Assembly: GCA_003427395.1 (NCBI GenBank)
Contig: BFEA01000032.1
Location: forward strand, 1,106,316-1,170,315
From: Chara braunii
Taxonomy: Eukaryota; Plantae; Charophyceae
Length of the DNA stretch: 64,000 nt
Reading direction: 5' to 3'
The notes below the pieces were generated by a model. That model saw only the letters and a program-made list of their open reading frames with translations, was not told the origin of the DNA and made no database searches. Below, in pieces: positions 15,615-50,057 of the stretch (the stretch's first letter is position 1; every line of letters begins with the position of its first letter). A program made the position numbers and the translations under genes.

Positions 15615-17934
15615 TGTTGAGCGCATCGGTCCGGCACCGCACGTGGCAGCGCGGGACCCTCTCGGTTGCCTCACGCAGGAGTTGGACCAACCTCGTCACG
15701 AACACACGAATGGAGCTTCCTTAGGCCGCTCTGGCCGAGTGTGCCAGCCATACCTCTCGCGAACCCCTACGACAGGATAGGGCCTACGCGAGGCACAACT
15801 TACCTCCACCTTACGGGAGTTGTCACCTCCCTTTGGTGGGCGTATCCCCGCCGAGCTACTAGTCCACAGTACGAAAGCTACTCGGTTGCAGTCGCAGAGG
15901 TGGACCAGTCGAGGGCGTTTCTCGTTCGCTGTAGCATAGGGGGTACGCGCGGTAATACGCCTATCGGACCCGCACGCGAACCGACATCTCAGGGGGGCTG
16001 AGGTCCCAAGCGCGACTCGTCGTCGGTCGACTAGGTCGCATCCCATACACCACGCGCCCGCCACTCTACGAACACACAAAAAAAAAGGAACACACACACA
16101 CAGACATACGAAACGACACAACACAAACCACACGACAATGCTCCTAGCCCCTTCAGTGGTCATCCCATAACTTTCCACTGCGGAAATCGGATAGGCGTCG
16201 CGCGCGAGACTTAGTATAAAACCGCGCAGACGGAGGGCCTACTCATATCGACTAGCAATGCAAGCGCACGCTAACAGTCGCGATGATGGCGTGCTATGTG
16301 GTACCCATACTCGCGCGGCCCTCGTTACTCTCAGGGGTCGCGTTCGACACTTAATTGTCGGCTGACACACACCTTGAGGATTAATCTCTCGACGCCGGAC
16401 AACCGTCATGCATGGTTGAAGACCACACACCCTCTTCTGCACCTTATGTAGAGCGGGTGGTACACAGGTCCATACCTGTGGTGGCAGTCGTTTCTTGCGA
16501 CCCTGGGGGTAACTCCTACTCCAGGCCTGGGCGAAAGTCAAGGGGTTTGACTTTGACGGCTGCCACGAACTAGAACGTCCAACCATGATAATCCCTAAAA
16601 AGCAACCAAAACACAAAAACAGGATGGGGTGAAGGTCCCTTACTTCAAAAGAAATCACGACCTTGGGGTACCCTCCCCTCTTCGGGTGATGCCAGTGGCC
16701 TACAATAATCCCAGGCATTGCGCCTGCGTGCGTGCCCGACGATCCTAGAACCTTTAGACGTTGGGCCGGCGAAACGTCGCGCGCAGAACTTTAACATAAA
16801 GCCGCGTGGCTACGAGCCAGTCCCATACCAACCAACGATGTCAGTCGTAAGTGGTAATCGCGGCTCCGGCCTCGCGATATTGAATGGCTGAAGGAATATA
16901 TCACGAGGGGTCACCCTTCACGATATTGAGCGGCTGAAGGATACGCCGTTCGGCCCTCGTGACATTTCCGCCTTCAGGGTGGGGTGCCTCGACGACCAGT
17001 GCAGATAGGCCCTGTACGAGGGGAAATTCCTCCCCGGGAGAGTCTAGGGTTTGGGATGTCCTGGACAAGGACCTTGAATCTCGGCCCAGGACCAACGTCC
17101 GACTAAGGAACCCCCAAGAAGCAAACAGGCTAAAGGGAAGGTCTTCCCTATGCCTCTCAATCTCAACCTTTAAGCAGGTTGTTAACATGGGGCCCCTCAG
17201 GCCACGCGAGCATTCATCGTAAGTGCACCCACACATATATGCACAAGGGAGATAGAGTTGCGATGATCACTGCTCACAGGCACAGTGAGACTCCTCACAA
17301 CCATATGTGTGTATATGGGACCGCAGGCAATCCGAATCCAAAATCCGAGCTGCAAGACATACATGCAATCACATCAAGATTTGAACGACAAAACATGCAC
17401 TACATGGAGTCAACCCCAACCAATCTCCGCACTCATACCCGTTGCTTTAGCCATGCAANCCCCAATCTCCTGTCCAACCAACCATAATTAAATACTGTGT
17501 ACCTTTGTCAAATGGTCATTCAATAAAAGTCCGGGCGAAACCCTCAACAAACAATAAAGTCACCAGGGCTAAAGCCTTTTAGGTTGGGTATGGAGAGTGA
17601 GTTGGAATTCAGTCTAGACCGACGAATCGACAATCGACCTGTTATCTGTGATAACAGAAGGTGATCCTCAAGGGATCAAGCTGACTCTAATCCCGATCCT
17701 AAATCGAACGACCAAGAGGACCTGCAACACAAAACAGACCAATTCCCAAGCTAAACCTATAAATCCTTGGAGGGTAACCACAATCTTGCTTCAAAAACCT
17801 ACCTAACTAACAAAGCCTAAATTTATCCTTAAGTCGTGCCCAAAGCAAAAGAAGCCTTAGCAAAACCTCCTCTATCCAGGGTGGGTCGCAAGGTCGCCAC
17901 CTGTTAAAATATAATCTATCTCTTCCAAACTAAG

Positions 17935-18240
17935 AAAATTTCGGCAGCGCTTTCCGTAGGGAAAGTGTTTTCTCAAAATTTATACAAGGCTAAGTTTAAA
18001 ACTTGAGACTAACCTTGATTTCTCAAGGTCCAATTTTGTCTAACTCCCTGAATTAACAAAAATTTGGGCAACACTCCCTTTAGAAAATGACACTTTTCAA
18101 ATTCTTACTAAGTCAGTTATATAGAAAAGACAAGTTGAACTTTGATAAGTCAAAATTTGTCTAACTCCTTGAACCTGTAGAAATTTCGGCAGCGCTTCCC
18201 GTAGAGAAAGTGGCTTACCAAAATTTATACAAGTCCAAGT
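17935..18240. repeat. Alternating repeat of about 120 bp inside copy 1 (aaatttcggcagcgcttcc / aaatttgggcaacactccc)
   Basis: Three units. The homologous array in copy 2 (33740-34290) has five. Confidence 0.8.
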
Positions 18241-18525
18241 ATGACAGTGAGCCTCAGAAAATGCAAGCACTAATCTAAGCAAAATAAAGTCAACCCAGAA
18301 AATGTAGGAATTGAACTAACTCCTATTGCTCTAGCACGTGGCGAGCCTCTAAAGCAACTACCTGTCAACCAAAGCCCCAGACCAAGTAGTAATCTCACTC
18401 AGCCACATGCAGGCCAAACCACAAACTTAAGGTAAGTACTCTCGCCAACCCCAAGCTCCTTAACAAACAATAGTTCCTGTTCCCTCTGTGAGTTATCCCT
18501 TTATACCCCACTTACATAAGGCATA

Positions 18526-19460
18526 GGTCAGGCCACCTGAACTTACAAAGCGCGCCCAACTTAGCCAGGCCTAAAGTCAGGATACCTAAACTAATAGAGC
18601 GTCCTGACTTAGCCAAGTATACACAAAACAGAGGGCACAACTACTTCACTCTTCTTTGGGCATATGACTAGACCACTCTAGTCGCCCTTAATTGTTTAAA
18701 TAGCCAAGTTGTATATATCTCTCTGAACTTAGCCTTCAAGGTGGACATAAGGCTGAGCCGCTCAACTTAGAACATTGCTCAGCCTGCCCAAGTTTACCTT
18801 CAGTTATACCTCTTAGCTATACTCTCTTCAATTGTGATAAGCTATAGCCAGGCTACCTAAACTTATAGAGTGGCCTGACTAGCCTGTTCTCAATAGCATA
18901 GTAATATAATATAACCAAATTATAACCATTAGGTTCCAACATGCGCGAGGCATTGGGTCAGACTACCTAAACTTATAGAGCGGTTTGATCCTCTGCCAAG
19001 TTCATTCCTCCGTGATCCAGTCTGTGCGAGGCAGTAGGCCAGGCTACCTAAACTTATAGAGCGGTCTGCCCCCTGCCAGAATTACTCCCTCAGAACGAAA
19101 CAGGAGAAGGGTTGAACCACCTAAACTTATAGAGCGGTTCAGACCTCCTCGTTCAAAATCAACGAAACTGGCAGAACTCCCAAATAAACAAGGCGACCCA
19201 AGGCACCTAAACTTATAGAGCGTCTTGGGACATGACAATCACTCACAGTCAAACCCTCACAAGTTAGAGCAGTCAGGTCACCTAAACTTATAAAGCGCCC
19301 TGACTCTCCATACAGTTCACAGCACTTGGTTTCCCCAAACTCATGGGGACATCCCAGCCTCCAGAGCTTCAGGCTACCTAAACTTATAGAGCGGCCTGAT
19401 GTTCCATGCAAATCAAAATAAACAAAGGGCTGGACTTCCCCAAACTTATAGGGACCTCCC
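18526..19460 (+). repeat. Spaced stem-loop array, conserved loop ACCTAAACTTATAGAGCG
   Basis: Core at about 18535, 18584, 18855, 18965, 19046, 19119, 19205, 19280 and 19376, plus a degenerate copy near 19438. Most copies are closed by a different complementary stem, and the spacers are unique. Confidence 0.9.
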
Positions 19461-22400
19461 AATCTCAACGACCCAATCAGACTACACACAATACTGCCTT
19501 CCTCCCAACCTTTCCCCAGATGCAACACCTTCCGTTCACAATCTGCTTTCAGGCAACCAAACAAAGTCTGAACTGAACTTACACACACATTCCTTTATTT
19601 CAGTCTGAGTTCACATCCTGAAAGTCAAACCAACCAGAATACAGGATTCACATCATACACTCAGTCAAACATTGAAAGGTTACAGATAGGGGTTATAGAT
19701 GGGTTTATAGAAGTCGTCAGGGAGTTACCACTCAGTTCCCTGCCTCCAGGACTCCGCATGAGTCCCGGCAGAGCTCCCACAATCGGTGGGGCAAACCTCC
19801 CACAAGGCCTTGGCGCGGATTACGGGCCATATGCCCGCCTGCAGCCTTCCTCTCAGAACCCAAGGGATTTAGACTTAGAGCAAGGAAGGCAGGGTGAGAA
19901 GGTGTGGGACTCTCAAACTCAAGAGGGGTACACTCAAGCTAGCTCGAGAGGGTCTTCAAGTCCTCAGTGCCTGAAGGCCCCAGAATGGTGGCCAAAGCAG
20001 CAGCAGCTCGGCCAACCTGTAGTCCAACCGCTGAGTCTGACTCCCCTGACGAACTCTCAGATCCGTAAAGATGACCTCCTTTCACAGCCGCTTCGCCTCG
20101 CTGCAGCAGCAGTCCTTCCTTATAGTTCAACTACCCCACCGTACACTATAGCACCGCCCTCCTCTGCGAAGAAACACTGCAATTCACATGAATGCGAGTT
20201 GGGCAGATCGTCGTATACAGCCGCAAGCCGTTACGGTATTCAGCAGCACCTGTAGCATTCCCAGCAGCGGCAGTAACTGACACAATGCGCCCACCCAGAG
20301 GCTGTAGTCAATGCTACGCCAGTAGCTTCACCGACCGAGCACAGCCCTGCCCTCTTCTTTAAGCCCAAACACCGCAATAAAGTGTTCTGGGAACATCCGC
20401 ATCAATTAGCAGCAACCAGTGACCAGCAGGGCGGCAAGCCAATTTGCAGCCCACCCGTCTTCAACGGTCGCGCCCAGGGTGGTGCAGCAGCCTAGAGTAA
20501 GCCCGATGATCCTGCCGCAGCAATATGGCAATTGGCCAGACTGTTGATGCTTGCAGTCAACGGTGGCGGCCCTGCCGCAGCCGATAGTCAATGCTGTAGT
20601 GGCTAGTAAGTGCCACTGCAGCAGCCAGCAACTTCGCAGTCTACAGCAAGACACAATGATCCCAGCAGCACAGTCGTCGAGGCAAGCACGAAGCCCGTAG
20701 TACACAAACAGCAAGGCTGCTGTAACTTGCCACCTTCTTGGTCTCCAAGCTTGTGGCCCGCCTGCAGTTGCCCGGCTCAATACACAGGTCGTGCAGGGCT
20801 TGGTTTTCGATACCGGTATATGACCACTAGCGATCAGCAACAGACGGTGAGCCGGGTCTGGTACCCATGATGAAGGTCAACTAGACCCTCGACTCCCGCA
20901 AGCGAGAAGGACCAACCTAGTTGGGTACCCGAACGACCATCGGGGGGAGAGGGGGGGTAAACCTCAGTCACAGAACAGACGAACAGCGCCCCGTCAGTGG
21001 TGAGTAACAACGCCCTGAACCCATGAAACGGGCACAGCGATCCTGACATGCGAACGCCCTTGGCCGTAGGCAAGCCTCCAACCCGCGAATGCATTCCCGC
21101 TAGTTGTCTCGACGGAATACGAAACACTGAATGAATCCATCCACATATGTAGTTAGGTTCATCCCCTCACCGCCAGTTTCGAAGGTACGCGCCCGCTCCC
21201 TCCTCACTCGTGCGGATGCTACTCGCCCGATCAAGCGCCGGCTAACAGGTAGGTCTCCAACACCTCGGCCGGCCCCAGGCCAATTCCGTCGATGCTGTGA
21301 GCCATTCGAATGAATCTCCCGCTAGGCTGCGGCCAGATACACTCACACTCGTAAGACTATCCCCGCAGCCTCACTCTCTATTAACTCCTAATCTACTGTC
21401 CTATTGCGAAATCTAACTCTACCATCACGTCCGTGCCGCCCCAAAACCCCGAACTTGCACCTTCCTCCACCCGTCTTCGTCAAGGAACGGGGGAGTTACC
21501 CCCTTTCTCGCTCACCACTCCCGCCGTCCGCCATAGCCCCGGCGCACTAAGTCTCTCTGCTAGTCTCGTTCTACTAACTCACTAACTATTCCGACTACAT
21601 TGCTGAACTCGCCCACCCCCAGAACGGTAGGAGCGCCCTTTTCCCCGACTGATTTCATCCATAGTCGAGTACAAATCACTCGTTTCTACTTCTCCCACTC
21701 CCTGTTTTCTTCAAATGTACCTGGCGCAGAACTGCGCCCCGATTCAACCGCCCCTTCCTCTGTGCCCTCCACTCTCCTGCATCCGCGCGCTGCTGCCGCA
21801 GTTAGCGTAGCGCCCGTCTCCCCCTTCGATCGTGCGTGCCATCCCTCCGGTCCGCTTCTGCCCGTTCCGTGGTTCAACTCCACCCCGTCCCTTCTGCGCT
21901 AGCGCCCGCCATGAGCTGGCCAGGCCCGCCGCCCCTGCGATTTACTGTTCGCCTCCTAACGCACCTTGCACCCGATACCGCCTAAATTCACCCACTGCTC
22001 TCCCCTCTGCTGTCTTCCCTTCACCTCCTTCGTTTTTGTCTTCCTCCCCGACTCCCTGTTGTCGTCAGTCAAAACCCGTATCCCGTCGTCACGCAACGCA
22101 CTCGCGGACGCCACGAGAGTTCAGCGAGGCAAACATCCGAAACAGGGAGCCACGCCCCAACTTTATACGCGCCGGCCCTACGCAGGGGCCGCGCTAAGCT
22201 TCTCTGCATCATTCCAATTTTAACGGACGTCCCGAAGGACTGCGGCCGGGGCGATGCCCCGCCGCGATCCCAAAAGTCACTCGGCCCCCTTTTTGCTCGT
22301 ACGTCCCCGGCCAGATCTGCGCCCGGGTTCATCCCGGATCTATGCACATCACCTTTGTGCAGTCGGCCATGCAGATCTTTTCTGCATCGTTCCGATTCTA

Positions 22401-23571
22401 GCGGGTACCTCGTAGGATCTGCGCGAGGCAGTGGCCCATAACACCACCAAGGCCATACAACCTCCCTCTACCCACGCCCGGCCCGTTTTGCGTCCGGGTT
22501 CACTCCCGGATTCGCACATATCCCCTGGGCTGCATATGCCATCCCTTCACGAGGCAGTCACGCCAATCCTTGCTGTACCATGACAAGTTTTAATGGATAT
22601 TACGAAGGGCCTGCCCACGGCCGTGCCCCGCGGCAGTTCAAATTCCACTCGGCCTTGCCACCGGGCCTGCTGACGGGGGAAACACCACCCTTAGGCAGGC
22701 CTGGACACCCCGCCCCTGCCCCGGGCTCGGACTCTGCCCGTATTTCAACAGTCCATGACTGTGCTTCCCGCTCTAAGCCCATGGTTCGACAGCCCGGACT
22801 CGGGGCCGGCGTCGGAACCTTAGCGGGGTCCGTGAATAACGGCAGGGGACAGAACGGCGGTATAACTTAAAGTGAAACCCAAAAATAGAGGGAATACTAC
22901 AAAACTTTCGGCCGCGCATGGGTCCTGCTGACGCTCCTCTGGCCCTGCAGCACGGGCCCGTGATCGGACTTTCTCAATAAAACGAAAGGGGGATAGTCCC
23001 ACAGGACCCTCAACCCCTTCGCCCCTCGCTGCTCCGTCGCTCCCACGCCACCGTCCGCTGGTCTCAAGCCTCGAACCTTCGTCTTACGACCCCGACACCG
23101 TAACCAATAGGGCTAAGCCCAAGCCTGTGACCTGCTGGCGCGGCTTCCCATATAAAACGGCACTGCGCGGCGCTTCGGGCCAAGATACCGCCTCGGCCAC
23201 CCTTTCAGCCACATCCGTACCCACGGCCCCTAGGTGCCCACGCCGGCCTACCTCCCCGCGTCGTGGCCGCCCCGTGCACCTACCGGCACGTAAGTCCCAC
23301 CGTCGGTCGCGCGCGCCGACCAAAGGCGGTCCTTCATCCCCTAACCAAGCCCGTAACACGATCCGGGTCGGCCGGCTACCCCGGCCGCCCACTCAATCAG
23401 AAAGATCACATGCGCGCCTTAAAATTGCGCGCCCACATGCTCCCTACTGGGACAAGGCAACCAACCCTCAGACACGGTCGGACCTCACACGACTTAGTCG
23501 GACCAAGCCCATTGTTCCTGTCATGTGCAAAAACCAGGGCGAATACCCTTGTAAGGGTATTTGTGCCGACA

Positions 23572-28325: not shown

Positions 28326-28389
28326 TTTTTTTTTTTTTTCCTGTTTTCTCTTTTGTTCTGTCTTTCCTTTGTCTTCTGTCTCTTTTCTC

Positions 28390-28611
28390 TTTTCTCTCTC
28401 CGGAGCTGGGATGGCTAGTGGGATTCGAACCGCCAGCCCTTGACGACTGAAGGCGCCATCACCTCAGGCTCGCCGTCGTCTGGCTGCTCTACGCACCTCA
28501 AAGGGGCGTTCTGTCGGAGACGCTCCTTGAGATCTGGTAGAGCGCGGTCCGGCGATGCTCAATATACAGTTTGCTCCTCGTCCGGATGTGGTCCCATAGT
28601 GTCGATTCCAT
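28390..28611 (-). pseudogene. Gag N-terminus of Gypsy element A
   Basis: Minus strand reads DTMGPHPDEEQTVY*ASPDRALPDLKERLRQNAPLRCVEQPDDGEPEVM. This is homologous to DTMGVHVDTGEYQPSPGRTLRELKERIRPNAPLGCAQQPDDREPKVM at 47286. Confidence 0.8.
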
Positions 28612-28659
28612 ATACTTGTTTTCTCTCCTGGTTGAACTTGTAAGCAGCTCAGACCTGAA

Positions 28660-28790
28660 TGCTGGACCGGCAGTCCGGACCTGATGTCAGAACTCAACCC
28701 GGACCCAATGTCAGGTCTGGCAGCACGGACCTAATGCTCGAACTGGCAGCCCGGACCTAATATCAGAACTGGCAGCCCGGACCTATTTCT
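28660..28790. repeat. Tandem repeat of about 26 bp in the element A leader (ggcagcccggacctaatatcagaact)
   Basis: About five degenerate units. Confidence 0.8.
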
Positions 28791-31272
28791 GAACAGTCCC
28801 TTATGTCCTAACAACTACGCTAGGAACTTCTTCAGTTGGGGTGTTGGGCGGGAGGGCCGCAACCCTGATCAGCGGCACCCTGCAGTATGCAAAAACTTAG
28901 TGAGAAGGGCGGGCGGGATGGAGGAACACCTCTAACAACAAACTGTCGTATGACAAAAGGAAGACTCAGAATAGTCAAAATTAGGGATGTGAGAGAAACT
29001 CAATTGACATTGATAGAGAGAACTACAGAAGGGATTAGGAAGGAGGCGCGTTGACATCCTAACTGAGACTTTCCGCAGATCGACCGAGCCCTTGCGGGAA
29101 GTTGCGGATCGGAACCGCACCGAAGTCGTACTAATCTAGACTGATATAAAAAGGAAACGATGTTGAAATCCCGGTTTCGGAATGACCTATATGCCATATA
29201 TTCTAGTTCCGTCGAATATGAGGCGTGGGCTCAACTCGAGGGAGTTTTGTTTACTGCACCCTCGAGTAGGTATCCGAGCAACGGACCCTGTCCCCTAGTA
29301 AAAAACCCAAAATTAAGAGCTGAGCGTACTTACTCTTTGAAGTTTTAAGCCTTTTTTGCAATTTTAAGAGATTTTTAATCGTTTAAATTAATAAAAATTG
29401 CTTATAAACGACAAGAGAACACTACCTCGCGGTGAGCGCATAGGGGGATGCAATGAAAACCCTAGCGAGTCCGAATATTTGATAAATAATTATAAAAAAA
29501 ATAGCTTTAATAACTGGAAATTCCCGTCTCTTACCTCAGGCCTTTGGGAACAAGCCAGTAGGTTCACCCGAACCTAGGTTACCGCAGCGTCTCTTTCCCT
29601 TCTTCCTCTAGGGAATTCTTTTGTATTTTTCAATTATATATTAAAGAAAATATATTTAGTTAGGATAAAATATATTTCTTAGTTTATATATATTAAGGAT
29701 CAATACATATATAAGCCCGCCGAGTTTGGAGATTTTTAAGGGTAGAAATAAAATTTGGGGACTTTACTAAAATTTCGTCAGCGTTTCGCCTCCCCCCGTT
29801 GGGATGGGGTTCGAGCGAAGCCCTCAAACAGCGCTGCCGACGGGGGAGTATCAAAAGGAATAATGGAAAAAAAAAGAAAATTGATTTAACTTAATTTTTT
29901 AATATTTTTGATTATTAATTAGCAAAAATTTAAATTAAAAGGAAAATTTTATAAAATTTCGACAGTAGTTTTCCTTCCCTCCCCCATTAGGACGGGTTCG
30001 GAAAAAAAGTCTCTCAAATAGGTAAAGTAGATGTGAAGTGCATTGAAGTCGAACCCTACGCAATTTTTAATATTTATTTCAATTTTTATCGATTTTAAAA
30101 ATCCAAAGTTAAATAATTCAGCAATTTCCCTCCCCCCGTTGGGATGGGGTTCAGGAGATTTTTCCTTGATTAAGAAAGAGAAAAGAAAAAAAATAAAGTA
30201 AACAAAGTCGAAATCTTGGCCGCTTGAATTTTTACTGATTTTTATTATTTTAATTTAATTTTTAATTATTTAATAAAGCAAAATTTTCCTAATTAATTTC
30301 CGCAATTTTGTGCGATATATTTAACGAAAAATAATATGCAACAAACGCGGAAGCTAGAAGCTATGGCTTCCCTCTATTTACCCGCTTCTCTCAAAATTGG
30401 GGTTAGGACTTTACCCTAATTAGGGTTTCCCGTAATTAGGGTTTGGGGTGTTGCGTGCAACCCCACGCACACCACAAAGCCCCGCTCGCCGCGAGAAAAT
30501 TTTTGTTAGCTTTCACTAGGTTTAGAAGAAAAACTTATCGGATTACATTTTTAAATTTCTTTTTCTTTTAATTTAAACAAAATTACAAAGAAATTCATTT
30601 TTTCCTTGATTTTCTTTCGCCCCTTTCTATCTGTTGGTGCCCGCCGTTTGTCCGAACGAAGTCCGTTTTCCCCGACTAGGGTCTCAAAACGTCGGGGAAA
30701 TTACAAGGAACAACTTTGCTCCCCGCGGTTTTCTCCGGATTTTACTTCCTTTTTCCGTAATTAAATAAAAATAGAAACAATAATTTGTAAGTTAATAAAA
30801 AAAAATAATTTTCTCAAAAGCTAGCCGTCGGAAGTTTTCAAGAAACATCTCGAAACGTTCGCCTCAATCAGAGGACGAACTTTGCCCCCGGGGTGGCTTG
30901 CACGAAAATGCGCAGATCGGGAGATATCGAGGAAAAACGAATTAGAAATTTAAACTAGTGATTTTTTTGAGATTTTTAATTAAAAAAATAAAAAACATTC
31001 TATATCTTTTTTTCTAGCAGTTAGAATTTTTCAAAAAACGTCTCAAAACGTTCGCCTTGACGAGAGGACAAACTTAGCTTCCGGTGTAGTTCGCACGAAA
31101 ACGCGCGGATCAGGAGTTGTCAAAGAAAAACAGATTAAATAAATAAAAGTAATCATCAAAATTCGAACTAATCAAGGAGACACGATCTAATCGGGCTAAT
31201 TAGCGACCAGCTAATCAGCCCTCGCACCCCCGTTGATTGGGGAAGGCCGCGGCCTTGGGGGTGCAGTTCCCC

Positions 31273-31574: not shown

Positions 31575-32047
31575 GGAGTACCTGATTGAGAATCGCTCCC
31601 GCTAGCAGCGGGAGTACCAGATTGAGCACTTCTCCTGCTTGCAGCGGGATGATTACACTAAAGTATCCCGCTAGCAGTGGAATAATCGCACTGAAGAGGG
31701 TCTTTTCCGCTAGCAACGGGATTACAGATTGTAATGTGGTGATGATTGTTGTTCCCTGCCAACAGCGAGATGATTACACTGAAGTGTATACTGAAGTGTC
31801 CCGCTAGCAGTGGAATAATCATACTGAAGAGGGTCTTTCCCGCTAGCAGCGGGACTACTTGATTGGTTGCTCACTTAAGAACACCGTTCCCGCCAGCAGC
31901 AGGATCACCTGGTTGATCACACTGAAGAATACCGTTCCCGTTAGCAGCGGGATCTCCTGATTGGTCGTGCTGAAGAGTATCGTTCCGCTAGCAGCAGGGT
32001 TGCCAGACTGGTATTTCACTAGCGAGCACCCTTCCCGCTAGCAGCGG
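31575..32047. repeat. Satellite of about 48 bp with palindromic core CCCGCTAGCAGCGGG, left part
   Basis: Degenerate tandem units, continued at 39155-39545 beyond the insertion. Confidence 0.9.
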
Positions 32048-35000
32048 TGTCAAGCGCATCGGTCCGACACCGCACCAGGGTGGCGCGGGACCCTCCCGGC
32101 CGCGTCACGCAGGAGTAGGTTAAAAAAATCCTTCGTCGCAAAATATACATGGAGCTTCCACAAGCCGCTCCGGCCAAGTGCGCCAACCATACCTCTCGCG
32201 AGCCCCTACGACAGGATAGGACCTACGCGAGGCACGACTTACCTACACCTTACGGAAACTGTCACCTCCCTTCGGTGGGCGTATCCCCGCCGAGCTACCA
32301 GTCCACAGTACGAAAGCTAATCAGTTGCAATCGTAGAGGTGGACCAGTCGAGGGCGTTTCTCGTTCGCTGTAGCATAGGGGGTACGCGCGGTAATACGCC
32401 GCTATCGGATCCGCACGCGAACCGACAGTTTGGGGGGCTGAAGTCCCAAGCGCGATTCGACGTATACAACACAAACAACGCGACAACGCTCATAGCCTCT
32501 CGGTAACCAACCCATAACTTTCCGATGCGGAAATCGGATGGGCGTCGCGCGCTGAACTTAATATAAAACCGCGCGGACGCAGGGCTAACTCATATCGACT
32601 CGTAATGCAAGCGTATGCAAGTGGTCGCAATGATGGCGTACTATGTAGTACCCATACTCATGCGGTCCTCGTTAATCTCGAGGGTCGCATTCGACACTCA
32701 AGTGTCGGCTGACACGCACTTTGAGGGTTAATCTCTCGACGCTGGACAACCGCCATGTGCGGTTGAAGACCACACACCCTCTTCTGCACTCTGTGCAGAG
32801 CGGGTGGTACACAGGTCCATACCTGTGGTGGCAGTCGCCTCTTATTGCCCTGGAGATCAGTCCCACTCCGGGCCTGGGCGAAAGTCAAGGGGTTTGACTT
32901 TGACGGATGTCACGGAATACAATGTCCAACCATAAAAATCTCCAAAAAGCAAGGGTAAAAAAGGAATCCCCCTTTTCTCTCAAGACACAATCTGGTGAAC
33001 CCTTATGCACAATCACAGTGGCCTCTCAAACACTCAGGGCACTTATAAATATATAAGGGTTGATTTTATAAGACGATCACTTCTCAAAGTCACAGTGGGG
33101 CTCCTCTCAACCATATATGTATGAAATCGCAGACAACACATCCAGAATCCGATCCACAATCATACCTGCAATCACATCAAAAGTTCAACCAGAAGTCCAC
33201 GCACTACATGGGGTCAACTTCAACCATTCGTTGCACTCATACCCCTTGCCTTAGCCATACAAGCCTCACTCGTGCAACTCTCAAATAAAATACTCAGTAC
33301 TTTTGTTGGATGATCATTCAATAAAGTCGGGGTGAAAACACAACAAAACAGTTCAATCACAAGGCTAAAGCCTTTAGGTTGGGTGGCAGGAGTGATATGA
33401 AGTTAAATCGTAAACCGACGAATCGGCAACCGACCTGTTATCGTTGATAACAGAAAGATGATCCTTGAGGATCAAGCTGAAACTAGCCCAAATTCTGAAT
33501 CAATACGATCAAGAGGACCTGTAACACAAGACAGGTCAATCCCCAGGCTAAACCTATAAGTCCATGGAGAATAATCCCCATATCACGATCTCACTCAAAC
33601 CATCTCAATTAACTAAGTCTGAATTTACCTTTAAGCAGTGCCCAAAGCAAAGGTAAATCCTTGCACAATTTTGTCCATAAAGAGTGGATTGTCAGAATCG
33701 ACACCTGTCAAAATATAAACTATCTTCTTTAAACGAAGCAAATTTCGGCAGTGCTTCCCGTAGGAAAAGTGCCTTCCCAGAATTTATATAAGCTCAAATA
33801 TGAAAGCAGAAGTAATCTCTAACTCAAGAAAATCAAATTTTGTCTAACTCCCTGAATTAGTAAAAATTTGGGCAGCACTCCCTTTAGAAAGGGAGACTTC
33901 CCAGATTTATAATAAGTCAGATATGAACCCAAAAGACAGCTCGAGCTCAACTTTAGACATAATTTAACTAACTCCTTAATTTTGTAGAAATTTCGGCAGC
34001 ACCCTCTCTAGAAAAGTGTTATTCCAAAATTTATACAAGGCTAAGTCCAGAATTTGAAAGTAACTTTGACTTCTCAAAGTCCAATTTTGTTCAACTCCCT
34101 GATTTAATAAAAATTTGGGCAGCACTCCCTTTAGAAAATGAGACTTTCCAGATTCCTACTAAGTCAGATATATGGAAAAGACAAGTTGAACTCTAAAAAG
34201 TCAAAAGGTGACTAACTCCTTGGATTTGTAGAAATTTCGGCAGCGCTTCCTGTAGGAAAAGTAGCTTTTCAAGATTTATACAAAGCCAAGTATATATATA
34301 AAAAAAAGATCTCAGAAAATGCAGGAATTGACCTAACGCCTATTGCTCTAGCACGTGGCGAGCAACCAAAGCAACTACCTATAATACTGAAACTCAAACA
34401 GACTAACCATCTCATCCAATCACATGCAAACCAAACCACAAATGTAAGTACTCTCACCATCCCAAGTTCATTCCATATAGATAGTTCATGAATCTTCAAG
34501 TCCTTGAATCCTTATACCCATCTTACATAAGACATAGAGTTGGACCATTCGCCATGGAAACAATGCCCAACTTGTCTTTATGATATACACGAACAGGTTG
34601 CACAACTACTTCTCTCTTCTTTTTGGGCAGATGACTAGGCCATTTACCATGGAAACAATGCCTGGTCGCCCTGAGCTGTTTAATATCCAAAAATTTAGTA
34701 TTTTTATGACTTTGTTTTTCAAAAAGAAAAGGCAAATATGGGCAGGGGACTGAACCATTTACAGTAGAAACAATGTTCACCTTGCCCAAACTATTTCCAT
34801 TTATACTTTGTATTTTTCCTTTTCTCTTCTTAATGATATGGCTTAACGCTGGACCATTCACAAGAGAAACTATGTCCAGCTGCCAGTTCACATGCAAATA
34901 TAGATAAAGTACTTTCCTTTATACTTAGTTTAGTTCACGTGCGTGGTTTTCGGGCTAAACCATTCATAGTAAAAACAATGCTTATCCTTAGACCAGAAAT

Positions 35001-38000
35001 CCTCCCTCAGAATAAAACAAGAAATTAAACCCCTTCAATCAGGCAAACCCCCCGAGTTAACTAGAGTAAACAGACCATTCACAGTAGAAACAATGCCTGG
35101 TTCTCCGGAAAACAACTAGATAAACATAGCAACCATGTCATTCACAGTAGAAACAATGTCTGGTCCTTTAGAAAACATCCAAATAAACATAGCCCTGAGC
35201 CATTCTTAGAAGAAACAATGTTCAGGCTTTGGTTGACCCTTCCAATTGGATAAAAAACTGTCTTCCTCCCACCTTCCCCCAATTCATACCTTAGTCTGCT
35301 TTCAGTCAAAACAAAAGGGAAACTTAAAGTTTACTTTCACACATTCTTTCCATTCAGTCTGATTGGGTCCTGAAGGGAAAACAAAAACCATAGGGACAAT
35401 CTCATGCATACAGTCATACTACAGAGAGATAAACAAAACATGGGTGGTAGTAGGTTGTACAAATGAAAGTGGTTTACCTGACGATTCCCTGCCTCCTGAA
35501 CTCCTGCTGAGTTCCGGCAGAGCTCCCGCAATCGGTGGGTGGACTCTTCACAGAGTCTTGACGCGGACCTACGGGTTGCAATCCCGCCTGCTGTCTTCCT
35601 CTTGTAACCAAGGACTAGACTGAGACTTAGAAAGGTAGATAGACAAGGGTTTGAGACTCTCAAATCCAAGGATGGTGCTCTCAGACTCACAGGAGAGGGC
35701 CTTGTTATCTTCCAACGCCTGAGGGCCCCGCAATGATGGCAAACGAACAACTTAGATCTGGTCAAGTCAATGCTAGAGTCATCCTCCCGACGACTTCTTA
35801 ATGTTCAACACAAAACACGATCACACTGTCCCGCCGACTTTTATTCTGACGTGCACTGGCCACAAATCAGGCTGTACTTCCGCGGCCAGTCCGTCGCACC
35901 TTGCCCAATATGGTGAGCACAATACTGCTGCATGCAGTAGTCTCAGCAGGCGTCGCCAACTCACACCTTTCGTCACCGCGTACTAGGCCAAGTAATACCA
36001 CTGTCCGGTTGGCGAACACACATCCCTCCTGAGCACCGCAACAGACCAATCAGCAGGCGGAAACGCGGTAGCGGACCACCCATACTCGGTCAGCTAGTGG
36101 AACCTAGCAACTGCGGCCTGACAGTCCCCCCCAGTACTCTTCACAGTGGCTCAACCAAAGAGAAGTCCTCTGCTTTGCCAATTGCCTGTAGGTATTCAGC
36201 ACTAAGAACCGCCATGCACCGCTGACTCTCAGTCTATCCCACAGTAGCAGTCTGAAGGAAGGAAACCTGTCTGATTAAAGAAGGAGACTCACTGCTTTGC
36301 TGCACAACAATTTTGCATATAATAGCATCCCTCCAATTCTCCAATCATGCAATCCCTGCAGTCTGTGGAAAACAACAGCAGCTGCATTGACCTCAGCTTT
36401 GTGATGACCGTTGTTCTCGGTGCCACCAACGCTGCAAACTCCCATCCCTGTTCAGACTTAGCTCCCGGATCCCTGCAAGCGACTCAAACATCCGACCCGA
36501 ACGACCATTATCTCGAAGTACCTGACCCACAATAGCGGTCAGGTTCACTTTGTTTCATAATGCCCGATGGCGGGCACAACTACGCACCTTGTCAGCGATT
36601 CCCTCCAGGTACGTGCTCCGCCAACATAGTGAGTCTCTCTCTCTCTCTCTCTGCCCAAGCTTCAGCCGTCAGCGGAGCGACGCAAGGGTCAACAGGTAAG
36701 TCTCCAGCCTTATGGGTTGCCTCGCATTACCTCTGTCATTAAGATAAGCAAAATCGAATGAACCTTCCACTAACGCCTGGCCATATGCATTCAACCTTTT
36801 CCCGTTTTCACCCCCGTCATTTCCCACACGGCTCTTTCTCTCCTAACCTCCATCTGTACTAACTCTCTTGCCATTCTGGCTGTAGATCCTCTGTTGCCAC
36901 TGGATGAGACCCCAAAGACTTAGTTCGTTTGCTACTCACTCGATCTTCTCAAGGATCGAGCGAATCGACAATCTCTGGTTGCGCCAGCTCTCGTCTTCAC
37001 ACCGCGCAGCCCATGCAGACAGTGCTGACTAGACCGATTCCTAGATTAAGAATCTAACATGTCCAATCACTTTAGATCGGTCTAAAACCCCTATCTGATA
37101 TTTTGTTTCGCCCGATTCCATTACGAATCGAGCGAGATACGTGCTTTTCACTCCCACTCTTCCTTCGTTTTCACCTCCGCCATATCCCGCGCGCAACCTT
37201 TTCTATCTAACTCCTATCCTAACCAACTAATCTCAAAACTAACCACACCATCATACTTACGCCGCCCAAAAACCTCCATTTTGCATCTTATCTCGCTCGA
37301 ATCCACGACGGATCGAGCGAGATTCGAGCATTTCACTCCTACCACCTCTTCCCTCCTTGCCATCTCCGCGTAGTCTGTACTTCGTCCGGCTCTAAATCTA
37401 CTAATTTGTCCCTAAAACTAACCTCACAATCATATTCGCCCTGCTCCTAACCCTCAGATTCAACCTCGCATTCACCCGAATCCCCTTCTATCGGAGGAGG
37501 AACTCCCTTTTTCCTTTTTCCTCCTTCTTCATTCTCGTTCCCGCCATAGCGTCACGCACTACTCTTTCTACTAACCTCCTTCTACACTAACCTACTGTCG
37601 ATTCTGACTTCAGAATCGGGGTCGCGAGGCCCGAGAACCCCCGATTCGAGTCCTACCCCGCCCGTGTTCGTTAAGAAACGAGTGTGATCAGCATTCTCCT
37701 TCCTGCCTCCCCTTCCCCATCACCGTTTCCTTCTCTGCATGCACTTTGCCCGCCCGTCCGTCCAAATTCATTCGCTCTTCGTACTGCCTTCGCTTCACCA
37801 CTCCGCCTCAACACTCCCACTGCGCTATTCTTTCCATCCGCAGCTCTGTAGCGCTGCCCAGCCAGTCGGCCCAAGCTCCGACCATCCCGAGCGAAACCTC
37901 GGAGGGACTCAGCTACTAGACGGTTTGATTAGTCTTTCGCCCCTATAGTCCACCAGACAGTGTGCCTCCCGTCTGCGCCACTGCTCCGCCGCTCGGCCCG

Positions 38001-39154
38001 CTGCTGCGCCACGCTGCATTAGCGTTCGTCGGGCCTCAGTCCGACGCTACCACCTCCCCGTTGCCTTCTCCCCCGAATGCACCCGGCACGGGCCCCGTCC
38101 AGGTTCACTCTGTTCTTCTTCGTAGTCGCCTGTTCGCTACCTGGCCCGCCGGCTGCTGCATAACGCAGCACCACCGACTCCGCCGTCCAGGCTCACCCTG
38201 CCAAACTCTCTACTCATCCCGGTTGCCGGTTTCTTCGGCCTATGGTCCGGGGGCGGCCTGCCACAACCCTTTCTTGCCCCGCTCCGCTCCGACGGTGTCC
38301 ACCACCACCTCGGACCCCCAACAGACAAACTCCCGTTCACTCAGTTGGCCGTGGACCCGCGGCCCGCTGTAAGGCCTATACGTGGGCCTTGGTGAAGCGG
38401 GCCTCGTACGACCTTCGGTGGTAATTCCAATGAGAACTCTGAAGACCGAAGTGGAAGAAAAGCCCTGCGGGCGGACCGCGTGGGGACGGACGGTGCTCCT
38501 TGGCCCACGCACCAAAATAATTAGGATACAGAAATGCCGCCGGCACCCCAAGCGAGCGAGAACCCGCAGGCCAGCCTTAAAAGGCGCGCACTCAAGGTCC
38601 TTGACCGCCGCGACGACCATTAGATCCGGCGTCCCGTCCAAATCAATGCCCCGCCGGGGTATATATATATAAAAAAAAGAAAATACGGCACTTGAATAAA
38701 ACTATTTAGAAAACGCCACCACCGATCGGACGCCGCCACTAGCAAAACCGAGGGGGATAGCCCCGCGACCTTCAACCCCATCGGCTTTCTCCCCGATGCT
38801 CCGCTGCAGCGGCGTCGACGCTAGCCGGCCTCGCACGCGCGCTCTCCTCGGTCAAACGTACCAACCAAGGAAAAATATCCCTTAATCCTGCTTAATAAAA
38901 AATAAACAAACATTGATAATATCGTTGCATAAAACGACCGACGTCTGCGACGACTTTATAATCAACAACAAAAGGATTCACGCACGCCTTAAACCTGAGC
39001 GCCCACGCACCCTTTACTCTAGTCTACCATCCAGTCAACGTAATCACAGACACAGCCGCGCCTAGCGCGGTATACTTAAACTTTAAACCAAAATTATTTT
39101 CTGTCGCCTGCAAAAACCAGGGCGGATACCCTTATAAGGGTATTCGCGCTGACA
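32048..39154. mobile_element. Giant non-coding TG...CA element (solo-LTR-like), copy 2, 7107 bp
   Basis: Starts tgtcaagcgcatcggtccg and ends gatacccttataagggtattcgcgctgaca. Perfect 4-bp TSD gcgg (32044-32047 and 39155-39158). Removal restores the satellite unit ctagcagcgggatcacc. Confidence 0.9.
34538..35228 (+). repeat. Spaced stem-loop array, conserved core CATTCACAGTAGAAACAATG
   Basis: Eight copies at about 34546, 34641, 34756, 34855, 34961, 35076, 35139 and 35201. Each has a different outer stem and unique spacers. Confidence 0.9.
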
Positions 39155-39545
39155 GCGGGATCACCTGATTGGTCACTCGGAAGAGTACCGTTCCCGCTAG
39201 CAGCGCTAGCAGCGGGATTGCTGATTGGTAATTTGCTGGCGAACACTGTTCCCCCTAGTAGTGGGACCACCTGATTGATAGAACTGAAGGGCACTGTTCC
39301 CGCTAGCAGTGGGACCACCTGATTGATAGCACTAAAGGGTACTGTTTCCGCTAGCAGCGGGATCGCCTGATTGATCACGATGAAGGGTATTGTTCCCGCT
39401 AGCAGTGGGACCACCTGATTGATAGCACTGAAGGGTACTCTTCTTGCTAGCAGCGAGATCTCCTGATTGATCACGATGAAGAGTACCGTTCCCGTTAGCA
39501 ATGGGGTTGACAAATTTGTAACTCGCTGATAAGCATCGTTCCCGC
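39155..39545. repeat. 48-bp satellite, right part
   Basis: Period 48 (ctgttcc at 39246 and 39294). Confidence 0.92.
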
Positions 39546-41231: not shown

Positions 41232-41641
41232 CTGGGCTAGCTCTTCATATTGATAAGCTGCTCCTGTTTAGTGTGAAACAGAAGCTAGCCCAGTAGGTTA
41301 CATCCCCCGACTCTTACCCAGCACGTACTGGGATCGAATCTGACAGGACGCATCTTTGGGTTGGCTCCTTTTTGGAGTTGGCCACCTTGCCATCAGCGCA
41401 GTCGATTTCGACCATCGATCTCGAAGATCGCACGGCCGAGATTGGTCGCGCGCAGTTCAGCAAGGCCCCTGCACAAAGGTGACACGCATAAATCAAAAAA
41501 TTGTCCAAATTTGTTTTCTCGATCCCGAAAGGGATCGAATTCGGATCCACATTTCAATAGTTCGTGGGTGAGCCCACAAACGCTGCGCGACCGTTGGCAT
41601 AAAGCCAACGGGAAAGTCTAAAGAAAAAAAAAAAAAAAAAA
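41232..41641 (+). mobile_element. Putative SINE-like structured element: tRNA-like head, U6 3' half, A-tail
   Basis: A-box-like tagcccagtagg, Lys-like anticodon arm gactctta, B-box-like gggatcgaatc, a U6 segment at 41459-41512, several hairpins and an A-rich tail at 41619-41641. No TSD identified. Confidence 0.5.
41459..41512 (+). pseudogene. U6: U6 snRNA 3'-half fragment
   Basis: agcaaggcccctgcacaaaggtgacacgcataaatcaaaaaattgtccaaattt vs plant U6 AGCATGGCCCCTGCGCAAGGATGACACGCATAAATCGAGAAATGGTCCAAATTT: 47/54 identical by manual alignment, no gaps. Confidence 0.85.
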
Positions 41642-42024
41642 CCTGCTTATGCGGTGCCAGTTGGCACACAGAGAGAGGCAGGGGCTTACAGTCCCTGAGA
41701 AGAGAGCACGACGCCGCTTTCAACGGCACCTGACTGTTGTTTTTTCTCTTTTAGATTTTCTTATTTTTTTTTTTTCTTTTTACTTTTCTTAGATTTCGTT
41801 TTAAATTCTTTAGTTAGATTTTTTTTCTGGGCTGAAGAAGCCCGTTCACAGTTCTCGTCGGGATTGCAAACCAGACAGACACTCGCTGCGCCTGAATAAG
41901 GCGTTGAAAGAGAGCAGGATGTGGGGCTGTGCCAGACTGTTTCGTCGGACTCACCGACTCATTAGGGGGTTGGACCCCGACAGTCTACATACGTGAACAT
42001 GGCTTCTAAGGCGCCTAGATACAG

Positions 42025-46263: not shown

Positions 46264-47285
46264 ACTTATGGTTTCACGAGGTAGTCTAAAAAAAAACAAA
46301 TACAAAACACTATTATGTAAATAGGACCGCCGGATGGATAGTATTCGGATTACCCCGATGATTTCACTATCATGTTTTGGCATTGAGGGGTAAATAAATA
46401 GGAAGTAAAAAGTAAACAAATTTATTTCTTCAATCTAAAGTTATCTTTAGACTTTTATGAGAAACACAAGTAAAGAAAATTCCAAAAACAAATTCAGATC
46501 GAGTAAATAGATCTAAGAGGTGTTCTTTATACAGAGGAGGTTACACCTGCGACGAGGAGGAAGTAAGACATCATGATTTTTTTTCTTGTTAGATGAAATC
46601 AATCATGTTAAGTATTACTTTTTAATTGTTGGAATGATTGACTGTAAAATTGATCCATGTATGTATTGCTTTGAAAAGTTATCTATTTTGATGAGTATGA
46701 TATGCATGGACTGGGGTTGAATTGTTTGTTTTCTTAATTACCCTAGTCAACCGACGTTTGCTTCATCCTTAGGAGATCAACTCCCTAAGTGACGAACAAC
46801 GTCCGGGTGCAACACGCGTTTAATTCTCGTATACATATACTACAGCGTGCGAGCAAACGCCCTTGGTCGACCCCCCTCTGCAATTGCATATTAAGACTTT
46901 CGCATGTGGGTCGGTAGCTCGGTAGGGATACCCCCCTAAGGGTGGTGACAGCCCCTTAAGGAAGCAAGCTTATGCATCGCGGAAACCTGTCCTGTCGTAG
47001 GAGACCTCTGGAAGTACAGCTGGCGCACCCGGCTAGAGCGACGAAGGGACGACGCGACCGCCCACCGTCTCGGCGGCTCTTGGAAACTATTTCGCTCTTG
47101 TCCCTAAGTTGTCTCTGTGTTTTGTTAAAGTCGTGTAACTCCTGCGTGACATGGCCGGGAGGGCCCTCGTTTTTACGCGAGGGCCGATGCGCTCAACAAT
47201 GGACTTATAGCTCTGAGGGTAGTAGACGGTCCTACCGGGGCTTATTCATTAGCTCCAGGCTCCAAAGGAGCCACTTGCACCAAGT

Positions 47286-50057
47286 ATGGAGTCCGACACC
47301 ATGGGAGTTCATGTAGATACGGGAGAGTATCAACCGTCGCCTGGTCGAACCCTTCGCGAGCTCAAGGAGCGCATTCGACCGAACGCGCCTCTCGGATGTG
47401 CACAGCAACCCGATGATAGAGAGCCCAAAGTGATGTGCGGGCCCGTCGTTACCGAGCCAGAGAGACCGTCGTTGAAGATACGGATGAAGAACATAACGGA
47501 GTCTCCCAGTTTTCGGGGAGGGATGGACGATCGACGCTCATCTGCCTACGAGTGGAGAGACGCTAGAGAGAACCGACGCAGAGATGACTGGAGAGATCTG
47601 TGCGTCAGGGATCAAGCTTGGATAGATAGAGATAGGCCTCATGAGAGGAGCAGACCGCCTCAACGAATCTACGATCCGCAGACGGGCTAGTCATATACAC
47701 TCCCTTACGAAAGGAGAGATCGATTCATCATCTCTCACCAACCGGCAGAGTTAGATACCAGGCCACCCGTTTTCAAGGGATACGGTATCACTGAGTATCT
47801 CGAGAGGTGGGAGCTACACCCGTACCGTAGCCAGTGGTGCGAGGATGAGATTATAGACAATTTTCTGTTTAACTCGGACCCGAGCTTGAACCAGATAATC
47901 AAAGAAGCTCGACCACAGGATAGAAAGTGAACTACCTATAAGACTAGTCCTTACGAACTCTTCAAGTTGGCGGACATCAGATGCTCGATCAAGGATTTGG
48001 AGACGATGACGCAGGGTGAGGACGAGAGCGTTTAGGCGTTCGGAAAACGCTTCCAAAAGATATCGGATGCCCTGATCGCAAAGGGAAAGTTGTCGGAAGT
48101 AGATCGATGCACGATTTTCATCTGTCGACTACCCAGAGGGAAATAGAAGGGGATACTTAGGGAACTCCCTCATGACAAGTTAGATTTTTCGACGGTTCTC
48201 GATTTGGCTATGAAAGCTGGAGCAGATGACTATAAGGATTTAATTTGGAGAGGGATGCGACGACGGGACTTCTCTCTCTACCGAGACTACGATATAGAGA
48301 GGTGTCTTGACTTCAATGATCAGCCTTGGACGGATCGACGATATTTGCTGGATGGAATCCATCTGCAATGACCTACAGAGACTGTAGTAGATGAGATAAG
48401 GAAGATGAGGGAAACGATCAAGGTTTTGACGCGACAAATTGCTAGGATAGAGGCGAAGACGGAGACTATTGGTTATAAGGCGAGGTACGAATCGTCGAAC
48501 TCGCTGAGGTGCGATCGAGTTAGAACTGGTTCAGCATACTCGCTAAGGTGGGATAATCGCGACCCAGGATCATGGAGAGACGCAGAGGACAGAAACCCCC
48601 GGACACTGACCGATTATCGAGTGAGGGAGCAGCGGTATCTTATACGTCGCGACGATTCCTCTAGGTACCAGGGCGAGGATCGAGATCGACATGTTACCTA
48701 TCATAGACACTATACGAGAGATAGGGACAACGAGTATCGACGACATGGTTGGGTGGAGACCTACCCTCACAGCCCAAGGTATGATCGAGGTCTTGAAGAC
48801 CTCCCGAATGCAGAGGAGTATCTTAAGAGTCTAGATAGGTATGACCATGTGACGGGGAGAGACCGACACAACAATTCCCGCGAGCGGGACGAGAGGGGAG
48901 ATGTTGATCAGGACTATCGCAATAATGCTAGACGAGAGTCTGGCCTGCGTCCTCAAGACATACGGGTATCAGGCGGACACGAAGGATACAAACGTGTAGA
49001 GGCTCAACCTTCTTTTCCTTGTAACACATGGCATTGCGTCTACTGCTGTTCAGATGATCATATCGGGAGAGATTGCCCTGATCTTCAGAAGGCAATAGAC
49101 TATGGCATAGTGGGACTCGAGAACCGACAGCACGTCAAGAGATCCGACAACCTGAGGGATGCACCCGTATTTTCCTCAGAGGAGGTCAGACAAACACTGT
49201 TGGATGAGGATGAGGTAAAGGCGACGGTAAAGAGTCGGAGTGTCCGGTTTTTCTTACCGCCAAGAAACAAGACGCCTTTAGTCCCTAACCACGTCGCCTC
49301 TACCAAATCATCGTGGGCTCTTTCCTCAAAGAAGAAGGTCGATCCAGTGGAACTAGAGGGAGATAAAGAAGAACGAAGAATATTACGACTACGAAAATGA
49401 GGCCCTGAGGGAGTTGCTGATACAACAACTACACCCTTGAGGCTAGTGCTCAGTCGGTGTATGCGACATTTCATACGAGAAGCGCCCAAGCGAACGCAAG
49501 ATAAACCTACGATACTTATCGGTCCCGAACGAGGAAAACCAGTACCTTTGACCGATGAGATCTTCGTTGATTCTAGGTCATTAGCGGACAAACCCCTTAC
49601 CGACGTCGTTCCAGTCGCACATCAATCACGGCCTCGAGCGCTAGAGCGGACTGCACCGCGCCCGTTTTCTTTGATGCATGAGAGAACGTGCCTCATGAAG
49701 TATTTTACGTTCCTGGGAACGGTACCATGGGGACTCAGCTTAACGAACAGGTGATTCCTCACAGGGTAGTGGATAATGTCGGGGATTGTCGAGCCCTGTA
49801 ATCCTGGAGAACGTCCTTCTCCGGACAACGATTGCGGTTTGGAAGAAAAGAGAAGCGCCGACACAAGAGTCGCACTTGTATGAACACTTTAAATCTCAAA
49901 CGATTCGCTTGATTGAGACGGCGCGGGCTCAACGGGGGCGTCGAGAAGAGGTCCGGGCTTGTTTGTCAGGCGGCCGAAGGTCAGTCGGCCACCCGAATTA
50001 CGACAGATTGACCCTTGGATTAAGTGTCTAGCGAAGGATCTACCCGCACTTTCATAA
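47286..50057 (+). pseudogene. Gag of Gypsy element B with CCHC zinc knuckle, decayed; no recognisable pol
   Basis: PPVFKGYGITEYLERWE, then QGEDESV*AFGKRF (MHR-like), an Arg/Asp-rich region and CVYCCSDDHIGRDC (C-x2-C-x4-H-x4-C). Contains stops and frameshifts. Confidence 0.85.

Follow-up and report, generated by a model that had tools for sequence, protein, structure and literature searches.

Introduction

Psi, the dispersed packaging signals of single-stranded RNA viruses, MS2, PP7, and TAR are short hairpins, each combining one bulge with a small apical stem. In signals of this type the identity of the stem is free, the bulge and loop are read, and several copies give avidity. Psi normally lies between the 5' LTR and gag; the RxRE of HTLV, a complex retrovirus, is an RNA response element carried by the LTR itself. 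How plant and algal LTR retrotransposons pick their own RNA among thousands of related copies is, to our knowledge, largely an open question. The HERV-K RcRE, as described in the excerpted text of PMC6916052, is a U3 element confined to the RNA 3' end, and its several stem-loops bind a protein that the element itself encodes.

Among Ty3/gypsy elements, the Phygy clade of non-chromoviruses is characterized in the excerpted survey text (PMC6317226) by a 4-bp NCGN target duplication, a total length of 7.7-10 kb, and mostly tRNA-Trp primer binding sites (PBS). The same excerpts give an LTR maximum of roughly 5 kb, in a survey whose search stopped at 6 kb, and describe self-priming elements (Tf1/Sushi, Tcn1, and TAR) in which the LTR transcript of the element itself yields the primer. 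According to the excerpted text of PMC3601003, no part of the LTR is less conserved than U3, and two plant copia groups have a very short R.

Here we describe an array of small hairpins inside a very long LTR of Chara braunii, analysed within a 64,000-nt stretch of DNA (the window). The array is real, selected, and of RNA type. Our preferred reading, to which we give roughly even odds (about 0.5), is that it would act on the sense RNA as a multivalent platform, specific to its subfamily, on which a protein encoded by the element (most likely Gag) docks.

The LTRs and their family

Three related LTRs and one gag set the context of the array:

15615..23571, minus strand: LTR1, a 7,957-bp solo LTR with TG...CA ends, flanked by GCGT and TCGT
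32048..39154, minus strand: LTR2, a solo sister LTR of 7,107 bp whose GCGG target duplication is perfect
46742..47198, plus strand: LTR3, the 3' end of a related LTR, 68% identical to LTR1 15718-16035
47286..49777, plus strand: broken gag of element 3, reaching to the protease region and beginning 88 nt past the LTR3 end

LTR1 and LTR2 are colinear, and both begin with TGT and finish with ACA; the 4-bp target duplication of LTR1 has one mismatch. Because gag lies 88 nt behind the homologous LTR3 end, LTR1 and LTR2 are solo LTRs whose sense strand is minus. LTR1 was inserted in an older LINE-like fragment (a call made by eye), and the insertion site of LTR2 is a 48-bp satellite.

All matches to the gag protein of element 3 are Chara braunii models (2 in one search, 15 in another). 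Several of these relatives carry PR-RT-RH-IN in Ty3/gypsy order, an order that comes from the relatives and not from the window; CCHC-type relatives were also found, and viral contigs held no gag relative. The LTR1 family is a Ty3/gypsy-type retrotransposon, with its polarity fixed through the related subfamily of LTR3 (68% identity). What the earlier note took for a giant non-coding element is thus a solo LTR of a coding family. No Pfam gene was found in the 11 LTR1 ORFs of at least 120 aa that were scanned (49 of 76 ORFs at the scale of the window), and tblastn matches between LTR1 and LTR2 fell in several frames on both strands, with no single coding frame standing out. A Dada-type U6-targeting DNA transposon, hinted at by U6 matches, was dropped on the TG...CA ends, the target duplications, and the gag.

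The LTR1 family is high-copy: in the DNA contigs of one run, summed depth was 11,570-41,533 over the array versus 8-68 for the flanks and the unique LTR middle, although summed contig depth is no copy number. Similarity among copies collapses above about 20,000. Scanning metagenomes with a two-unit pattern gave 19 loci, one of which is homologous and provides a further family copy (L001); the other 18 are unrelated and were dropped, and single matches in prokaryote genomes (13) and viral contigs (1) were taken as chance. Only three family copies were readable. In DNA contigs the middle of LTR1 (19892-22187) is near single-copy between two high-copy ends. This hypervariable, cargo-like region is different in each of LTR1, LTR2, and L001.

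Other repeats share the window. A second gag start belonging to the same family as that of element 3 lies at 28376-28842 on the minus strand (87% to P0011 over 54 aa), with A+T-rich sequence upstream and an LTR end that is only guessed. A broken chromovirus pol at 54321-57400 on the plus strand retains RT, RNase H, an integrase zinc finger, and a chromodomain, and is distant from the LTR1 family. Satellites occupy 31588-32047 and 39155-39517 (48 bp), 51788-52331 (73 bp), 60586-61623 (41 bp), and 61991-63412 (59 bp).

Anatomy of the hairpin array

The units of the LTR1 array are as follows:

18526..18560, minus strand: bulged-type hairpin unit, hexaloop 18540-18545
18575..18609, minus strand: bulged-type hairpin unit, one loop base (18593) unlike the family majority
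18666..18683, minus strand: 6-bp remnant hairpin, with a full unit at the same place in LTR2 by alignment
18748..18786, minus strand: intermediate (hybrid) unit, a UAAGUU hexaloop on an LTR2-type bulged stem
18846-18880, 18956-18990, 19037-19071, and 19110-19144, minus strand: bulged-type units, the first four of seven
19196-19230, 19271-19305, and 19367-19401, minus strand: bulged-type units, the last three of seven
hexaloop 19338-19343, minus strand: unbulged unit within 18846..19401
19428..19462, minus strand: unbulged unit with hexaloop 19443-19448, which opens the array on the sense strand

The array was first noticed as 9-10 copies of an 18-mer. With up to 3 mismatches allowed, nine occurrences are found (5 exact, 3 with one mismatch, and 1 with three), all within 18535-19393 and none elsewhere in the window; 0.01 are expected, and nine were reached in 0 of 100 shuffles. 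This count stands for the 18-mer as such, but it falls short of the array: anchoring on the central six bases—the hexaloop—gives 12 hairpin units at 18526-19462.

On the minus strand, a bulged unit has an 11-bp lower stem, a bulged U, a 3-bp stem, and the hexaloop UAAGUU. The 18-mer had been described as a fixed loop; it folds instead into stem, bulge, 3-bp stem, and hexaloop, and because this inner part folds and covaries, the supposed fixed loop itself contains a covarying stem. The unit at 18526..18560 regains its C-G, U-A, G-C inner stem with the G that the family majority carries at 18548. All eight flank pairs listed in the earlier note are present in the sequence, and arms pair better with their own partners than with the arms of other units (43 of 54 Watson-Crick pairs in 9 units; exact permutation p=6.6e-5). 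Unit spacing is uneven, at 43-175 nt, and the spacers are mostly unlike one another, as had been claimed (1 of 28 spacer pairs at p<0.01). The hybrid unit at 18748..18786 is, by its sequence, a link between the two motif types of LTR1 and LTR2.

A covariance model search found no extra unit in LTR3 or elsewhere at E<0.2, and one weak candidate at 18412-18446 (E 0.22). Rfam gave no match to the array at E<=1 and none to L001 below E 4.7, and ARAGORN reported 0 tRNA genes.

Several readings of the motif itself were rejected. A splice-site reading of the minus-strand AG/GT fails in the LTR2 units, which lack it; a METTL16/FIONA1-type target on the plus strand is matched by only a minority of units, with its bases in a covarying stem; and the variants fit no single poly(A) signal. 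Loop-loop kissing was set aside on UAAGUU not being self-complementary, as was a pseudoknot with downstream CAAGTT-like words, which lie beside some units only and show no covariation by eye.

Covariation and comparison of orthologous units

Covariation across family copies was scored in 15 gap-free, bulged-type units from two copies (9 of the 12 LTR1 units and 6 of the 10 L001 units); units of the unbulged and LTR2 types, which are built differently, were excluded for that reason. In the minus register 88.1% of 210 cells are paired, and 11 of 14 pairs have changes on both sides. The covariation score was reached by 0 of 500 shuffles, a shuffle that ignores relatedness, and slid controls were 26-48% paired. 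The inner stem occurs in compensated forms (A-U in 11 units and G-C in 4; U-A in 14 and A-U in 1), and the bulged U is invariant in all 15.

The orthologous units of LTR1 and L001 separate the parts of the hairpin. Hexaloops are identical at 57 of 60 positions (p=7e-4 versus the spacer rate), spacers at 285 of 359 (79%), and stems at 99 of 150 (66%); thirteen stem cells changed on both sides, giving eight Watson-Crick pairs, three pairs that form on the minus strand only, and two unpaired cells. As read from these alignments, the loops are held, and the stems change faster than the spacers yet stay paired. The covariation and the orthologue comparison together support the original proposal that selection has acted on a multivalent array of single-stranded hairpins within a retroelement.

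The rates of change also bear on a mutational origin, in which the hairpins are by-products: template switching would duplicate units and perfect quasi-palindromes, and any function would lie at the DNA level, as enhancer repeats before a TATA-like box or as hairpins of single-stranded cDNA. Faster divergence of stems than of spacers is what template-switch conversion would cause. Family DNA contigs join hairpin units in other orders, so units turn over; two LTR2 spacers, at 35081 and 35144, are copies of each other (p=0.003), and the array lies just upstream of a TATA-like box. However, template switching makes perfect palindromes, and it leaves unexplained the invariant bulge, hexaloops held above the spacer rate, and a stem column that varies among G.U, C-G, and A-U. 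Paired flanks would be superfluous for a site read in double-stranded DNA, and the 18-mer itself shows compensated changes. We consider a by-product origin or DNA-level role decidedly unlikely.

The strand that folds

We consider it probable that the array folds on the minus-strand (element sense) RNA. Stem column 10-26 is G.U in 11 units, C-G in 3, and A-U in 1; it pairs in 15 of 15 units on the minus strand and in 4 of 15 on the plus strand, where the same register has 79.5% of its cells paired. An RNAalifold consensus has 13 pairs at -12.9 kcal/mol on the minus strand versus 9 pairs at -8.1 on the plus strand, with the whole upper helix lost, and several units on the plus strand have three A.C mismatches in a row. 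Folding energy is lower on the minus strand in 25 of 30 unit windows (one of them centred 7 nt off, at 19331 for 19338), including 10 of 10 from L001.

Other measures do not separate the strands. Per-unit z scores favour minus in 17 of the 30 windows and plus in 12, with one tie. In-context loop-closure probability gives 8 versus 7 of 12 in LTR1 and 7 versus 7 of 10 in L001, and one-sided orthologous changes divide 15 versus 8 (p=0.21). The earlier note had held that non-canonical pairs are G-U on the plus strand, which is not general: over 12 stem columns and 15 units, 30 cells are A.C on plus (G.U on minus) versus 11 that are G.T on plus, an excess that is not significant against base composition (p=0.20). 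The three plus-strand G.T pairs of the outer flanks are Watson-Crick in the orthologous L001 units, and position 18985 is C in family DNA (18,657.7 of 19,345.6 summed contig depth).

Three poly(A) RNA runs (X5, X6, and X7; three samples of one study, added by species label) bear on the same question, with library polarity assumed. Over four bins of the array, first-mate(+) versus first-mate(-) depth is 1.5 versus 0.45 in X5 and 4.92 versus 0 in X7; in X6 it is 34.8 versus 38.2 over the array and about 1 to 2.3 over ten bins on the low-coordinate side. Given the usual library polarity, these sparse reads point to minus-strand RNA in 2 of 3 runs. At an RNA depth near 1, just 40 of the 4,677 reads reach 99% identity; the reads therefore come from other family copies. 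Reads in the sense direction are confined to 18457-19891 and to a U6-like bin (sense = minus), which leans to the minus direction in X5, X6, and X7. The strongest strand-biased RNA signal falls just beside the array:

19716..19870, minus strand: conserved, structured block on the 5' side of the array, where stranded poly(A) reads are most abundant

Here X7 has 44 reads to 0 at 19756, and Rfam gives no match to the block. Counterparts at 35462-35625 in LTR2 and at 1078-1245 in L001 form, with it, a multi-hairpin structure with compensated changes among the three copies.

An array working on plus-strand (antisense) RNA, as first proposed, would account for the shuffle-controlled fold of the whole array, which disagrees with the measures above: z=-7.9 on plus and z=-4.9 on minus (20 shuffles each), scores that control for the composition of the G+U-rich minus strand. 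One stem column is T.G on plus in 5 LTR1 units, X6 reads are about equal over the array with the other direction in excess beside it, and LTR1 and LTR2 have in common a plus-strand TATA-like box (16215) and a GTAAGT donor-like site (near 18432). The plus-strand consensus nevertheless loses its upper helix, all ten L001 units have lower energy on minus, and A.C triplets recur in several units. Element polarity, the G.U/C-G/A-U column, and the sparse reads favour minus, so the plus-strand assignment is probably wrong; we judge a plus-strand function very unlikely.

The suggestion that short RNAs are released from the hairpins fared no better. No pile-up of read ends was seen at the hairpins in these libraries, all of them poly(A), and a stem of about 14 bp would be a short substrate for Dicer.

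Position in the LTR

The sense-strand end of the array meets a promoter-like signal:

18500..18505, minus strand: TATA-like box with a putative promoter role, immediately 3' of the array in the sense direction

Counterparts lie at 34516 in LTR2 and 43088 in LTR3, and the first GCUGCCGAAAU-type repeat follows each of the three boxes by about 270-330 nt. These repeats occur as 2 copies about 245 bp apart in LTR1 (17900-18240) and as 5 about 123 bp apart in LTR2 (33700-34300); in LTR3 the core forms a 54-bp tandem array at 43351-43835. The hairpin array would then be the end of U3, or would lie within a long R starting near 19,900—either way, near the 3' end of the sense RNA. At the place equivalent to the array, before its TATA-like box, LTR3 has a run of hairpins without a fixed loop (42500-43020, plus strand, by eye).

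The LTR also carries copies that resemble a spliceosomal RNA:

22141-22240 (53.7 bits) and 22318-22429 (30.6 bits, below the gathering score), minus strand: two U6-snRNA-like copies, from Rfam

A third copy in LTR1 is visible by eye near 22500-22620, and LTR3 has one at 41452-41514 on the plus strand; the U6-like copies lie on the element sense strand with no obvious upstream TATA, and Rfam found no U6 match in LTR2. In all three runs, poly(A) reads match 22199-22240, and the flanks of these matches are of many kinds, which means that longer transcripts include U6-like sequences from many diverged copies. A type III hammerhead-like motif with one core change (48 bits against a gathering score of 48.5) lies at 41934-41986 on the minus strand, antisense to element 3.

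A sister array with a different head

LTR2 carries an array of its own:

34534..35225, minus strand: LTR2 array of 8 hairpins, in the region homologous to the LTR1 array

Its outer stems covary (87.9% of 99 cells paired), and its conserved head on the minus strand is CAUUGUUUC-N6-GAAUGG, with variable hexaloops. The exposed face is thus a fixed hexaloop in LTR1 and L001, and a variable hexaloop with a fixed larger bulge in LTR2; L001 has one LTR2-type unit. At orthologous places of LTR1 and LTR2 the spacers and outer stems can be aligned and the head is different, and since this holds across units, all heads of one subfamily move together. LTR2 units fold weakly and their inner register is uncertain: whichever strand is folded, prediction gives the inner stem in just 1 of 8 units, and RNAalifold draws the unit with a 12-nt loop.

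Downstream of the array, both LTRs have a hairpin like the LTR1 head (17750-17765 in LTR1, 33553-33564 in LTR2). The 5' arm of the LTR2 hairpin equals, over 12 bases, the sequence at the PBS position of element 3.

We propose the following mechanism for docking by an element-encoded protein. The element sense (minus-strand) RNA would fold as a twelve-hairpin array just 5' of the promoter/poly(A) region, and hence near the 3' end of genomic RNA, in U3 or a long R. Each unit would present its bulged U and hexaloop to one protein molecule, and docking of Gag would mark element RNA for packaging or export. With only shape counting, stems would be free, even favoured, to diverge, and dissimilar stems would resist recombination and cross-pairing. 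A shift in protein specificity would then drive all heads of one subfamily to change together. Gag is the simplest candidate for the partner, with CCHC-type relatives known from sequence matches.

All the structural evidence applies equally if the same sense-strand array binds a host protein—for export, stability, or anti-silencing—or acts as a decoy, in the style of a constitutive transport element. U6-like copies in the same LTR suggest mimicry of host RNAs, and LTR-borne export elements exist, the U3-located HERV-K RcRE among them in the excerpted account (PMC6916052). The main argument against a conserved host partner is the concerted, subfamily-specific head: the exposed face differs between sister LTRs, and a conserved host protein would more likely hold one motif. 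The array also matches no Rfam family. A different LTR2 head on covarying stems would fit an element-specific partner better than a conserved host one, and we regard host binding as unlikely.

Possible pairing of hairpin tips with the PBS position

In Tf1 the self-priming duplex is 11 bases long. A stretch of that length stands behind LTR3:

47199..47211, plus strand: PBS-position sequence of element 3, of which 11 bases can pair with LTR1 and L001 tips

After one spacer base, the 11 bases that follow the LTR3 end pair 11/11, with 2-3 G.U, to the tips of 9 of 12 LTR1 units and 5 of 10 L001 units, and the full match holds in both compensated tip variants. An equal match occurs by chance at 61 of 118,246 window positions (0.05%), or at 330 (0.28%) with any number of G.U, both post hoc figures. 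The tips might pair with the element's own PBS region, either as self-encoded primers cut out by RNase H or as 5'-3' cyclisation contacts, and self-priming is known in plant LTR elements from the excerpted survey text (PMC6317226).

Against a match with a chance of 0.05-0.3% stand its post hoc discovery and the fit of only one of the two PBS-position sequences tested. The match crosses subfamilies, joining an LTR3-type PBS position to LTR1-type tips, and the 8 kb upstream of element 3 itself have no site of at least 9 bp. LTR2 hexaloops vary, compensated inner stems argue for shape and not for a fixed complementary sequence, and cutting an array in U3 would damage the template. We treat PBS pairing as a long shot. 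Its fullest form is an even longer one: the array as a bank of self-encoded primers or PBS-docking loops of a tRNA-independent family, in which a dozen tips would prime or circularise the RNA. Tips and PBS would in that case evolve in step, as an "address code" of the subfamily.

Meaning and comparison with known systems

Under the docking reading, the array would be a natural cassette: sister subfamilies bear different heads on homologous stems, and an intermediate unit is still visible. With two head types, a swap test can address both how a subfamily selects its own RNA and how RNA and protein co-evolve; the cassette could also be a source of orthogonal RNA tags. More generally, LTRs of 7-8 kb can be built from RNA modules—hairpin array, structured block, and U6-like copies.

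A literature search found nothing on these Chara LTRs, and nothing on self-encoded retrotransposon primers, an LTR-U6-hammerhead combination, or compensatory stem-loop arrays; most subscription papers lay outside its scope, so absence from print is not shown.

As an element, the LTR1 family resembles Phygy in its 4-bp NCGN duplication, present in 2 of 2 insertions (GCGT/TCGT and GCGG), and in its relatives with PR-RT-RH-IN. One LTR alone, however, measures 7.1-8.0 kb, which exceeds the survey's LTR maximum of roughly 5 kb, and the length and short non-coding parts given for Phygy in the excerpted survey text (PMC6317226) differ from this; since whole Phygy elements measure 7.7-10 kb, we do not place the family in Phygy. 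Self-priming elements, as described in the same excerpts, have one site at the RNA 5' end, and the array would instead offer many internal hairpin tips.

The likeness to CRISPR noted at the outset is superficial and extends to the repeat-spacer layout only. The array lies in a eukaryotic LTR with spacing of 43-175 nt, and it pairs between variable flanks, not within the repeat. Its spacers are vertically inherited (79% between orthologues), and, as the earlier note had stated, there is no cas gene, here among the 11 LTR1 ORFs scanned.

By analogy, the array would work like a multi-copy packaging or response element. It shares with signals of the Psi/MS2/PP7/TAR type, as these are generally described, short bulged hairpins, free stems, and multiple copies. 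We know of no concerted head switch between sister subfamilies in such signals. In contrast to Psi, the array lies within the LTR, 2.9-3.8 kb from the LTR 3' end. The RcRE and RxRE differ from it in host and in partner: the array belongs to an algal Ty3/gypsy-type element, and no Rec/Rex-like gene was identified by Pfam in the LTR ORFs scanned. With the HERV-K RcRE it has in common that both are structured RNA elements inside an LTR; the RcRE is one branched fold, whereas the LTR1 and LTR2 arrays consist of 8-12 separate copies of one small hairpin, each on an independent stem.
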